A DNA stretch of 64,000 nt from Eledone cirrhosa (lineage: Eukaryota), in contig OZ024765.1 in NCBI GenBank assembly GCA_964016885.1, positions 5,518,001-5,582,000 of the forward strand, written 5' to 3'. The notes beneath the pieces are model-generated. The model did no database searches. It saw nothing but the letters and a program-made list of their open reading frames with translations, and had not been told where the DNA came from. The translations under genes were made by a program, and so were the position numbers. This document shows positions 4,558 to 58,580 of the stretch, piece by piece. The number at the start of each line of letters is the position of its first letter. Position 1 is the first letter of the stretch.

Positions 4558-4863
4558 ACAATATTAAATAAATGGAAAACTATATTTATAAAACCATATC
4601 TATTTCATTATATATATTTCGGGGATATCATATTAACAATATGCTATGCCTTCATCAGACATTTTGCACATTTTGTCTGATGAAGGCATAGCATATTGTT
4701 AATATGATATCCCCGAAATATATATAATGAAATAGATATGGTTTTATAAATATAGTTTTCCATTTATTTAATATTGTAAATATACTCCAAATATTTGTCG
4801 AGTGCTTTTATATCAGTTATAAATATTTACTAGTTGTAACCCAACAATTTTAAATATAACTTT
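4558..4863. mobile_element. Fold-back hammerhead element, family A copy 1
   Basis: Inverted arms 4558-4661 / 4674-4777; + hammerhead 4670-4733; GAGTGC at 4800; (TA)n on both sides. Confidence 0.85.
4670..4733 (+). ncRNA. Minimal type I hammerhead ribozyme motif (family A)
   Basis: attttgt | CTGATGA | agg-cata-g-catatt-gtt-aatatg-a-tat-cccc | GAAA | tatata | TA | atgaaat; stem I pairs with two G-U wobbles. Confidence 0.75.
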
Positions 4864-6129
4864 ACATGTATATATATATATATATATATATATATATATA
4901 CAAATATGCTTAGATTTGTGTCTGCACATATTTTTCACATTGTGTGTGCATATATATTTGGGGGGGTTGTTCCAGAGTCACAAAGAGTATACCCCTCCAC
5001 CACCACCACCACTAACCCCCCCAACCACCACCACCACTACTCCCCCCACCACCACTACCCCACCCCACCACCACTACCCCACCCCACCCCTCCTACCACC
5101 ACCATCATCATCCCAAGACCTCATTTCTGCTTGATGGTTGTCAGATATTAGGGCACTGGTTCCTTGATGGTGTCACACTGCACCTAAAGACCCCACATAG
5201 GGGTGGCTGGTTGTATATATGTTTCATGTGAGTGTGTGTATGTATATATATATATACACACACAAATACATGTATGCATATTCACATACATGCATGCATA
5301 CATATATTCACAAATACACATACATACACACATAATTACATACATACATACATATATATATATATATATATATATATATATACAAACATATATATACACC
5401 CATTCATACACACACATTCATACAGATATATACATACATATACACACATACATACATACACACATACATATCCACATATATGTATATACATTCATACATA
5501 CATACACATACATACACGCATAAACATATATACACACATACACACATATACATACACACATACATACATCACACATAGATACATACACACACACACATAC
5601 ATACATACATACATACATACATACACACATACATACATACATCACACATAGATACATACACACAAACATACATACATACACTCACATATCAATATATACA
5701 CACATACATACATACACACATACATCACATAGATACATACACACAAACATACATACATACACTCACATATCCATATATACACACATACATACATACACAC
5801 ATACATCACACATAGATACATACACACAAACATACATACATACACTCACATATCCATATATACATACATACATACACACATACATCACACAGATACATAC
5901 ACACAAACATACATACATACACTCACATATCCATATATACACACATACATACATACACACATACATCACACATAGATACATACACACAAACATAGATACA
6001 TACACACTCACATATCCATATATACACACATATATATACACCCATTCATATTGCCTATATATATCAAGTTACACCTTTCTCTGTAGTTTCTAATGTCTAA
6101 TATTTTCTTATTGGTCTCTGTGACTATGG

Positions 6130-6965
6130 GACTGCCACCACCACTACCACTACCACCATACCACTGCCACCATACCACTACCACCATACCACCATACCAC
6201 CACCATACCACTGCCACCACCACCACCACTACCACCATACCACTACCACCATACCACCACCACCACCACTACCACCATACCACTGCCACTGCCACCATAC
6301 CACTGCCACTACCACCATACCACTGCCACTACCACCATACCACTGCCACCACCGCCACTACCACCATACCACTACCACCATAACACTGCCACCACCACCA
6401 CCACTACCACCATACCACTACCACTACCACCATAACACTGCCACCACCACTACCACCATACCACTACAACCACCACCACCACCATACCACCGCCACTACC
6501 ACCATACCACTACCACCATAACACTGCCACCACCACCACCACTACCACCATACCACTACCACTACCACCATAACACTGCCACTACCACCATACCACCACC
6601 ACCACCACTACCACCATACCACTGCCACTGCCACCATACAACTGCCACTACCACCATACCACTACCACCATACCACTGCCACCACCGCCACTACCACCAT
6701 ACCACTACCACCATACCACTACCACCACCACCATACCACTACCACCACCACCATACCACTGCCACCACCACCACTGCCACCACCATCATACCACTGCCAC
6801 CACTACCACCACCACCACCATACCACTACCACCACCACCATACCACTGCCACTACCACCATACCACTGCCACCACCACCATACCACTGCCACCACCACCA
6901 CCACCACCACCACCACTGACACCACTACCACCACCACTGACACCACTGACACCACTACCACCACC
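6130..6965. repeat. (CCA/CTA/CCATA)-rich compound microsatellite
   Basis: Direct reading. Confidence 0.95.
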
Positions 6966-7467
6966 TACAGCCCCCCCTTCCATGTTCTCACACACCCTCT
7001 CTCCATCACCTTACCCTCCATGTAACCCCCAGTCCAACCATTAACCCACCCCTCACCTCATCATCTACCCGTCGACACCCGAACATCTACCTGACTACCC
7101 ACCCTTCATCCTACCATCTACCCCGATTACCCACTCTTCTCCCCTCTCCATACACCCCCTCGCCCGACCATCTACCCCGACTACCCACCCCCACCCGACC
7201 ATCTACCCCGATTCTCCACTCCCGACCATCTACCCCGACTATCCGCCCCACCCTACCCTGTCTACTACAAGATCCTGGGGTGGAATGGGGTGGGTGTAAC
7301 TGAGCCGCAACCCAAACCGATTGCACCCAGCTGAGGGTACATGCAGAAATTAGTTTGTGGAGACAAGAAGGGGTGGGGTGCTGCTGTGTGGGGTAGGATG
7401 TCATGGTGATGAGGAGGAGGAGGGGGGGGGATGAGTAGACATCATTACCATCACTGTTACAAACTTT

Positions 7468-8833
7468 ATATATACACATATGCATCTATGTATATATACA
7501 TGTGTGTGTGCATATTTATGTGTATATATATACACATATGCATCTATGTATATATACATGTGTGTGTGCATATTTATGTGTATATATATATATACACATA
7601 TGCATCTATGTATATATACATGTGTGTGTGCATATTTATGTGTATATATATACACATATGCATCTATGTATATATACATGTGTGTGTGCATATTTATGTG
7701 TATATATATATACACATATGCATCTATGTATATATACATGTGTGTGCATATTTATGTGTATATATATATACACATATGCATCTATGTATATATACATGTG
7801 TGTGTGCATATTTATGTGTATATATATACACATATGCATCTATGTATATATACATGTGTGTGTGCATATTTATGTGTATATATATACACATATGCATCTA
7901 TGTATATATACATGTGTGTGTGCATATTTATGGGTATATATATACACATATGCATCTATGTATATATACATGTGTGTGTGCATATTTATGTGTATATATA
8001 TACACATATGCATCTATGTATATATACATGTGTGTGTGCATATTTATGTGTATATATATATACACATATGCATCTATGTATATATACATGTGTGTGTGCA
8101 TATTTATGTGTATATATATACACATATGCATCTATGTATATATACATGTGTGTGTGCATATTTATGTGTATATATATATACACATATGCATCTATGTATA
8201 TATACATGTGTGTGTGCATATTTATGTGTATATATATACACATATGCATCTATGTATATATACATGTGTGTGTGCATATTTATGTGTATATATATACACA
8301 TATGCATCTATGTATATATACATGTGTGTGTGCATATTTATGTGTATATATATATACACATATGCATCTATGTATATATACATGTGTGTGTGCATATTTA
8401 TGTGTATATATATATACACATATGCATCTATGTATATATACATGTGTGTGTGCATATTTATGTGTATATATATACACATATGCATCTATGTATATATACA
8501 TGTGTGTGTGCATATTTATGTGTATATATATATACACATATGCATCTATGTATATATACATGTGTGTGTACATATTTATGTGTATATATATACACATATG
8601 CATCTATGTATATATACATGTGTGTGTGCATATTTATGTGTATATATATATACACATATGCATCTATGTATATATACATGTGTGTGTGCATATTTATGTG
8701 TATATATATATACACATATGCATCTATGTATATATACATGTGTGTGTGCATATTTATGTGTATATATATACACATATGCATCTATGTATATATACATGTG
8801 TGTGTGCATATTTATGTGTATATATATATACAC
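7468..8833. repeat. 58-62 bp minisatellite (~23 units)
   Basis: Unit 'tacacatatgcatctatgtatatatacatgtgtgtgtgcatatttatgtgtatatata'. Confidence 0.97.
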
Positions 8834-8998
8834 ACCTTGCTTTATTAATTGTTTCTACTTTTGGCACAAGGCCAGCAATTACACCCCAGTGTATTACTGG
8901 TACCCTATTTTATCGACCCCGGGATTTGAACTGAGAACGTAAAGGGACGTCATCGACCCCAGGATTTGAACTCAGAACCTAACGGGCTTTATTAATGA

Positions 8999-57413: not shown

Positions 57414-57443
57414 TATATATATATATATATATATATATATATG

Positions 57444-57848
57444 GAAAGTTATATTTAAATTGTTGGGTTACAACTAGTAAATATTTATAACTGATATAAA
57501 AGCACTCAACAAGTATTTGGAGTATATTTACGATATTAAATAAATGGAAACTATATTTATAAAACCATATTTATTTCATTATATATATTTCAGGGATATC
57601 ATATTAACAATATGCTATGCCTTCCTCAGACAAAATACAATATAGACAGTTTTATAGATAAATAGATTTGACATACCGTTCAACATCGACTTGTATTTAC
57701 GGTATGTCAAATCTATTTATCTATAAAACTGTCTATATTGTATTTTGTCTGAGGAAGGCATAACATATTGTTAATATGATATCCCTGAAATATATATAAT
57801 GAAATAAATATGGTTTTATAAATATAGTTTCCATTTATTTAATATCGT
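57444..57848. mobile_element. Fold-back hammerhead element, family A copy 4 (CTGAGGA core)
   Basis: Core at 57749 (+) and its mirror on the left arm; (TA)n flanks. Confidence 0.85.
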
Positions 57849-58026
57849 ATATATATATATGTGTGTGTGTATGTATATATACATACATGTATGTATATAT
57901 ACATACATATATATATATAATTGGTGTTGGATGCTTAAAGCATCCGTATGTGGTGGGCCGTTTGAGCACTCGATGCTCTCATAGAGCAGAGTATGATATC
58001 ACAGAAAATCTGTTTCGTAGAATCAA

Positions 58027-58108
58027 GACGTATCTGAGGACCTTGCGATTTTCAGACCACATCGATCGTGCCTCGAGCTGGTCGCCAGAGAAACGATTGT
58101 AATATGTC
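58027..58108 (+). ncRNA. Type I hammerhead motif (family L) within element ~57920-58155
   Basis: gacgtat | CTGAGGA | long stem II (gcga...tcgc) | GAAA | cgattg | TA | atatgtc. Confidence 0.7.
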
Positions 58109-58175
58109 CAATAAATTCCATTCGTCGCAACACTGATTCTCTTTTTTTCTGTGATATATATATATATATATATAT

Positions 58176-58580
58176 GGAAAGTTATATTTAAATTGTTGGG
58201 TTAACAACGAGTAAATATTTATAACTAATATAAAAGCACTCAACAAGTATTTGGAGTATATTTATGATATTAAATAAATGGAAACTATATTTATAAAACC
58301 ATATTTATTTCATTATATATATTTCAGGGATATCATATTAACAATATGTTATGCCTTCTTCAGACAAAATACAATATAAACAGTCTTATAAATAGTCTTA
58401 TAAATAAACCTACCAAATCAACCTCCCAAATGCAAGTCGATTGAAAGGTATGTCGTATCTATTTATTTATAAGACTGTTTATATTGTATTTTGTCTGAAG
58501 AAGGCATAACATATTGTTAATATGATATCCCTGAAATATATATAATGAAATAAATATAGTTTCCATTTATTTAATATCAT
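58176..58580. mobile_element. Fold-back hammerhead element, family A copy 5 (CTGAAGA core)
   Basis: Core at 58495 (+) and its mirror 'tcttcag' on the left arm; (TA)n flanks. Confidence 0.85.

Follow-up and report, generated by a model that had tools for sequence, protein, structure and literature searches.

Inverted arm pairs of a Penelope-like retroelement family in Eledone cirrhosa and the conservation of its putative hammerhead core

Hammerhead ribozymes of Penelope-like retroelements (PLEs) have been described with a CUGANGA/GAAA/UH core, a long helix II and a short palindromic helix III suited to dimers, and as opposite-strand pairs 100-700 bp apart; the same report states that in vivo evidence is absent and proposes a ribozyme-made circle (PMC4209133). 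In a reconstituted in vitro system, that of PAc, a Poseidon element of Anolis, ribozyme mutants still insert and cleavage is unneeded (PMC11167929). Between the hammerhead discovery paper and this reconstituted system, the in vivo relevance of Penelope hammerheads is at stake. Here we analyse a 64,000-nt stretch of the Eledone cirrhosa genome (assembly GCA_964016885.1, contig OZ024765.1, positions 5,518,001 to 5,582,000; hereafter the window) in which six copies of one repeat, family A, share the described core, the long helix II and the palindromic helix III. Five of the six form head-to-head fold-backs flanked by (TA)n tracts; in each, one arm extends ~80 nt further 3′ (the tail; Table 1).

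We consider it probable that family A is the end of a Hydra-type PLE, that its fold-backs form when both nicked target strands prime on one uncleaved sense RNA, and that the ribozyme core is needed for the founding of source elements and not for a single insertion. In practical terms, thousands of palindromes with the appearance of miniature inverted-repeat transposable elements (MITEs) are retroelement stubs. The two arms serve as an internal clock that separates inherited changes from those acquired after insertion, and would place the filter on the core over generations and not within one insertion, a distinction that could reconcile the two published positions.

A probable Hydra-type element and its predicted ribozyme

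Based on a 20-base anchor around a free 7-mer, arms of family A occur in at least 17,146 places in the 3.0-Gb genome (control, 0), with CTGANGA intact in 16,719 of these arms and altered in 427. Fold-back pairs kilobases apart flank coding sequence. Locus L012 starts with a short arm in inverted orientation and an incomplete upstream copy of the pseudo-long terminal repeat (pLTR, the ribozyme-bearing end), followed by an open reading frame (ORF) with one frameshift, a 1.3-kb 3′ untranslated region (UTR), the pLTR and the tail, for a unit of ~3.75 kb. The ORF carries what we take to be reverse transcriptase (RT) motifs followed by a C-terminal GIY-YIG endonuclease (EN), with DKT, a CxCx5C linker, CxxC..E..N..CxH, RWK in the form RWR, and no CCHH. 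Its first Atlas match (score 0.98) was to clusters with HTH_animal and some RVT_1, and a Pfam search of the element ORFs found no family. Read from motifs, the arrangement is that of a single-ORF EN-containing (EN+) Penelope with RT and GIY-YIG, albeit split by the frameshift in L012, and the ends of L012, L009 and L224 have the organization of pLTRs, with a partial tandem, an inverted 5′-truncated copy and a tail at one end.

The Hydra clade of C-terminal EN+ PLEs (PMC8557442) shares with family A the order of RT and GIY-YIG, the DKT, RW(R/K) and CxCx5C motifs, CxxC/CxH around E and N, and the lack of CCHH, as well as the (TA)n target, the hammerhead, and the inverted 5′-truncated copy with its tail. 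Unlike that clade, as described there, family A has a unit of ~3.7 kb, including the 1.3-kb 3′ UTR, where units are generally <3 kb, a tail of ~80 nt as opposed to 30-40, and an Asn-rich stretch after RT. Hydra-1_Obim of that clade is 2,507 bp long (PMC8557442), and the likeness of family A to the clade is one of motifs and architecture. Family A is the pLTR of a PLE, probably one of Hydra type; the family is new and its kind is known. A Neptune label was dropped once the Hydra motifs were tested, a non-LTR retrozyme was rejected as the arms continue into a coding Penelope unit and form no short tandem array, and a MITE or fold-back DNA transposon was rejected as the ends are asymmetric and the central junction is variable. 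The window holds no element ORF, its copies being stubs only, and the 200 kb flanking it, with few arms, was excluded from the tests.

Each of the six cores has the layout of a type-I hammerhead: an 8-bp stem I, CUGANGA, a stem II of 30-31 nt, GAAA, a six-base spacer, UA and the return strand of stem I. With CUGANGA, GAAA and UH placed around three helices, and with covariation among paired bases, family A is a putative type-I hammerhead ribozyme with self-cleavage predicted after UH. An Rfam scan of the window found no family at the gathering score; of the 697 rows at E<=10, the best 150 were matches of simple repeats to microRNA families. In stem II, three pairs alternate between A-U and G-C with G·U intermediates, and stem I changes are wobble-compatible; pairing is kept by 13 of 20 recurrent stem changes versus 25 of 122 changes confined to one arm (p=1e-4). 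The base at H17 is always A across the sampled pairs, where C or U would also allow cleavage. Stem III would form two pairs within a monomer but eight in a dimer, its sole recurrent loop change preserves self-complementarity, and the other families in the window use different palindromes; the ribozyme may act as a dimer through this stem.

Two structural features weigh against the favoured explanation. In minimum free energy folding, most window arms miss the active form as monomers, and position 10.1-11.1, canonically G-C, is relaxed, with A-U in 95 cases, A·C in 18, G·U in 10, U·U in 7 and A·A in 2, though the A·C form could re-register as a bulged A with a G-C pair. This pair is highly conserved in the hammerheads of PMC4209133, from which family A differs in being mostly A-U, in tolerating mismatches and in its 8-bp helix I. 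As a separate observation, the C11.1 variant makes a CpG with G12 (L011, L008), and at that CpG the two arms of L011 have TG and CA, respectively; the CA form abolishes G12.

Shared and private changes in the core

An earlier note on this DNA, which had proposed from six cores that only N7 varies and had not recognised the PLE, is largely confirmed, with corrections. The six plus-strand cores and their N7 bases stand as it gave them (Table 1), and none of the 11 window arms departs from GAAA or from UA at the cleavage site. Its statement that stem II changes keep pairing fails for the copies at 4677 and 55543, which read agg/ccc with A·C at 10.1-11.1, and all copies contain a C·C internal mismatch. 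The window holds 39 occurrences of CTGANGA where 20.9 are expected. In these six young copies most positions of stem I and stem III are as invariant as the core, so the copies prove little alone and a genome-wide sample is needed.

This sample comprised 150 fold-backs from contig C1, 50 from the top of each of three spacer-bin listings, found with a 16-base anchor outside the ribozyme, thereby leaving all ribozyme positions free to vary. Masking of truncated parts and of cells close to deletions left 127-149 pairs per column for 12 core columns, 51 non-core columns and N7. The sample favours C1 and arms with an intact anchor; 30 loci from the 140-170 and 305-335 spacer listings stand outside the selection test.

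Changes in one arm, acquired after insertion, affect 32 of 1,711 core cells (1.9%) and 182 of 7,236 non-core cells (2.5%; p=0.13); as they are not depleted in the core, inserted copies decay neutrally. Changes common to both arms are distributed differently, with four in the core, each at a single locus, versus 17 singletons and 33 recurrent alleles outside it (p=0.019). Columns with recurrent both-arm alleles number 0 of 12 in the core and 27 of 51 elsewhere (p=0.00065), whereas singleton both-arm variants are equally frequent per column (4/12 and 17/51). On a tree that left out the core columns (129 of the 150 pairs), internal branches carry no core changes, 41 non-core changes and six at N7. 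The absence of recurrent both-arm variants from the 12 core columns, against 33 in the 51 non-core columns, supports purifying selection on the ribozyme core in the source lineages, as the earlier note had suggested. That note had also held that equal mutation of all core positions among genomic copies would contradict selection, a yardstick that proved mis-set: single copies do mutate the core neutrally, and only propagated variants are filtered.

N7, the textbook free position of the hammerhead core, is the most labile of the 64 columns, with six internal and seven terminal changes and all four bases seen, though its one-arm rate is average (3/139). Neutral freedom, recombination or cleavage tuning are candidate causes of this lability among lineages.

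Several results run counter to selection confined to the ribozyme core. Non-core columns without recurrent variants number 24 of 51, the 16-nt anchor outside the ribozyme is common to the subfamilies, such that constraint is not unique to the core, and a test on all distinct minor alleles (4 versus 50) is not significant (p=0.18). Further, four pairs have a dead-core change common to both arms. Conservation for a non-catalytic role, as an internal promoter element, a protein-binding fold or a signal for the start of reverse transcription, with cleavage incidental, would suit the placement of the ribozyme ~85 nt after the inferred start site, the many equally fixed positions outside the core, the constant A at H17, the relaxed 10.1-11.1 pair and the normal in vitro insertion of cleavage mutants (PMC11167929). 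We regard such a role as unlikely, given that the pattern is specific to a hammerhead: the position free within CUGANGA takes four bases and is the one that changes most frequently, there is covariation at three pairs of stem II, stem I changes stay wobble-compatible, and families unrelated to one another combine this core with stems of their own.

Origin of the two arms

The earlier note had proposed that both arms of a copy share the N7 variant, having been copied from the same template lineage. The mirrored N7 holds for all five fold-backs in the window; the copy at 48948 is a lone arm bordered by (TA)n tracts, without an inverted partner. N7 is concordant in 136 of 139 scorable sample pairs, where 46% discordance would be expected if the arms were independent, and in 33 of 33 pairs among the genome-wide anchor matches listed (hand count; T 14, G 12, A 7). 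A long locus (L229; G000:C1:52535100-52539400) provides an edited barcode: compared with four unedited relatives, 69 of the 83 differences shared by both of its arms are sense-strand A>G changes. The arms align over 1,142 bases with no mismatches and one 16-base gap, and an edited 20-nt string was found in these two arms only. In the ORF part 57 of 62 differences are A>G, the edits thin out towards the ribozyme and are absent from the tail, a pattern as for the hairpin transcript of a long fold-back. The simplest reading is two rounds of copying from one edited sense RNA, though a parent that was edited beforehand and has since been lost, or copying at the DNA level, may be alternatives. Taken with the concordance of N7, the identity of these arms upholds a common template. 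Clustering of arms by locus, which the earlier note had offered as a test, is uninformative because subfamily members are near-identical (mate tied-nearest for 179 of 274 arms, strictly nearest for 76).

The note had allowed for homogenisation after insertion, which does exist and looks minor. Among the 135 of 150 pairs scored, 19 zero-divergence pairs occur in the old subfamilies where six are expected, the balance in near-perfect palindromes is shifted from private towards shared changes (7/19 versus 6/65, p=0.04), and L076, L086 and L174 mirror tails or flanks. As the main reason for the shared N7, gene conversion or hairpin repair of initially different arms is nonetheless highly improbable, as arms kilobases apart are equally concordant, most old pairs keep private differences (3.5% of cells), and wholesale conversion would remove the asymmetry of the tails.

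Two RNAs of one locus, dimerised by the palindromic stem III and with one bound per enzyme subunit, could also deliver matching arms. The self-complementarity of stem III is conserved, and the arms of copy 4 and of L072 carry different family alleles; in copy 4 the arms differ in the first ~45 nt (55354/55543), and the differing alleles occur at other loci, consistent with two family haplotypes. Independently edited RNAs would not, however, share 69 edits with none private, and a symmetric complex leaves the one tail per insertion unexplained, making this origin quite unlikely.

Exactly one arm is tailed at 140 of the 150 sampled loci, with both tailed at five and neither at five. Junctions could be resolved at 88 of the 150 loci: in 36 of these it is the untailed arm that extends further 5′, in 17 it is the tailed arm, and in 35 the two end within 10 nt of each other. 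Of 35 long loci counted by hand, the untailed arm is longer in 17, by up to ~3 kb, the tailed arm in 16, and two are unresolved. Since either arm may be the longer, neither is generally copied from the other, which argues against snap-back or antisense self-priming. Self-priming DNA synthesis, whether on the first cDNA or on an antisense template (the latter put forward for the Penelope of the rotifer Adineta vaga; PMC3846280), would make the two arms identical and leave one of them tailed; many loci have a near-perfect palindrome at their centre, and L229 is compatible with such an origin. Each arm often has sequence that the other is without (untailed longer in 17 of 33 resolved long loci; 36 versus 17 in short ones), and an antisense template would give T>C in place of the sense-strand A>G of L229; we therefore hold self-priming to be very unlikely. 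The Adineta vaga elements resemble family A in their head-to-head inverted pLTRs, optional tail, Asn-rich ORF inserts and TCACT initiator-like pLTR motif, but the sense edits and arm lengths here favour two primings on sense RNA.

The arms end at a hard boundary between TTTC and ACTGC, 85-90 nt before C3 and matching the TCACT initiator-like motif, which we propose to be a capped transcription start. The purine before the boundary is G in 75 of the first 100 of 229 matches (hand count). Boundary bases classified by hand at 40 loci from the first 42 rows comprised 24 ambiguous cases, explicable by the opposite arm, and the rest, with an untemplated G in 11 and A in five (p=0.006), an excess of G as expected of a copied cap (PMC4859970). 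Fold-backs by spacer length number 902 at 140-170, 1,089 at 199-229, 1,737 at 230-260, 3,110 at 261-291 and 394 at 305-335, spacers of 171-198 and 292-304 being left out of the count. Among the 50 loci listed for spacers of 140-170, arms read through the cleavage site without a pile-up visible by eye, and the templates of the stubs would accordingly have been uncut. At the central junctions of L305, L281 and L272, short tandem repeats of the element's first bases suggest repeated template restarts at the 5′ end. The 5′ cliff, the extra G and the edited barcode constrain the origin of inverted pLTRs and speak against the published antisense self-priming.

In the mechanism we favour, both nicked strands of the (TA)n target would prime reverse transcription at two fixed sites on one uncleaved sense RNA, with one protein dimer engaging both of these sites, which lie ~80 nt from each other. 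Stubs would result where copying takes place close to the 5′ end of the RNA, and long arms where it takes place close to the 3′ end. The ends of the two cDNAs would then be joined by microhomology of 0-5 nt, the range in which junction overlaps peak, or by short inserts. PAc likewise nicks and extends both strands, has two internal start sites bounding the tail, an AT-rich target and uncleaved RNA as substrate; it belongs to another clade, and in the available portions of that report the inverted pLTR is not derived from two primings on one RNA (PMC11167929). Twin priming of L1 is similar in that the second target strand primes on the same RNA and in the extra G at full-length 5′ ends, and differs in producing one inverted segment of a single copy, while here both primings would copy the same region and yield a duplicated mirror image (PMC4859970). 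In the Penelope literature found, where subscription journals are thinly covered, there was no test of shared versus private changes, cap-boundary analysis or case of edited arms; relative to it, the selection test, the 5′ boundary with its extra G and the edited-RNA barcode are new.

On the other side of the balance, the barcode comes from one locus, the only one in a hyper-editing screen of the 35 long loci, and its untailed arm lies inside the span of the tailed arm. The arms of copy 4 have different 5′ haplotypes, the boundary base is ambiguous in 24 of 40 cases, no pile-up of arms at the predicted cleavage site is visible by eye in the 50 loci listed, and cleavage, the transcript end and the circle are predictions from DNA sequence.

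The four pairs with dead cores in both arms and the edited locus fit a ribozyme that is dispensable for one round. The filter over generations would then call for a further step. The more-than-unit copies (L009, L012, L224) include sequence from before the start site, and no linear transcript beginning there can provide it. A ribozyme-made circle, as proposed in PMC4209133, might do so; read-through of tandem parents or template jumping could serve instead. Tentatively, and with less than even confidence, we suggest that uncleaved capped RNA gives dead stubs, whereas RNA cut by paired 5′ and 3′ ribozymes and circularised gives more-than-unit copies that regain the promoter, such that every lasting lineage would be filtered. 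On this view the mirror-image insertions would testify both to an in vivo requirement for the ribozyme and to a single RNA molecule having been copied from the two cut strands. Position 17 is G in each of the two arms of L234 (G000:C1:58421100-58424600), which differ at the next base; this dead cleavage site shared by a long insertion is a possible counter-example to the circle.

Copies and other elements in the window

Beyond the differences in copy 4, the arms of the window copies differ once in stem II (57629/57749) and once in loop II (24999/25117). A second hammerhead family, with the stem III palindrome ATGCGCAT, is present as a solo copy and as a fold-back that adjoins copy 5 of family A across one (TA)n tract. 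A third family forms a fold-back with a short stem II and, in its minus arm, G at the cleavage position. A further minus-strand hammerhead has a 42-nt stem II and the palindrome ATACGTAT. A tight fold-back with CTGATGA on both strands was rejected, as it does not fit the order of a type-I hammerhead.

Table 1. Family A arms and other elements, in window positions
Feature	Position	Strand	Core or arm position	N7	Remarks
Copy 1, untailed arm	4551..4661	-	4652-4658	T	Ends in (TA)n; central junction cuts 5′ strand of stem I
Copy 1, tailed arm	4670..4867	+	4677	T	Type-I hammerhead ~4669-4734; A·C at 10.1-11.1; then ~50 nt and ~80-nt tail
Copy 2, tailed arm	24810..25030	-	24993-24999	T	
Copy 2, untailed arm	25069..25223	+	25117-25123	T	Homology reaches further inward
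Copy 3, solo untailed arm	48862..49048	+	48948-48954	T	Older subfamily; (TA)n both sides; spans 5′ boundary (~86 nt before C3) to short end
Copy 4, tailed arm	55165..55443	-	55348-55354	G	
Copy 4, untailed arm	55452..55649	+	55543-55549	G	Begins G-ACTGCC at 5′ boundary after 8-nt insert
Copy 5, tailed arm	57441..57697	-	57623-57629	G	
Copy 5, untailed arm	57699..57855	+	57749-57755	G	
Copy 6, tailed arm	58174..58394	-	58357-58363	A	
Copy 6, untailed arm	58410..58587	+	58495-58501	A	14-nt deletion just 3′ of ribozyme (3′ of stem I)
Second family, fold-back	57087-57419	-/+	57192-/57314+		
Second family, solo	4168-4344	+	4238		
Third family, fold-back	40590-40890	-/+	40677-/40758+		
Minus-strand hammerhead	15830-15930	-	15913-15919		
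Tight fold-back (rejected)	15670-15780	-/+	15722-/15730+		
Apparent LINE	35591-39220				1,209-aa open frame

The window also contains an apparently intact long interspersed nuclear element (LINE), whose open frame includes an endonuclease, RT and C2H2 fingers.

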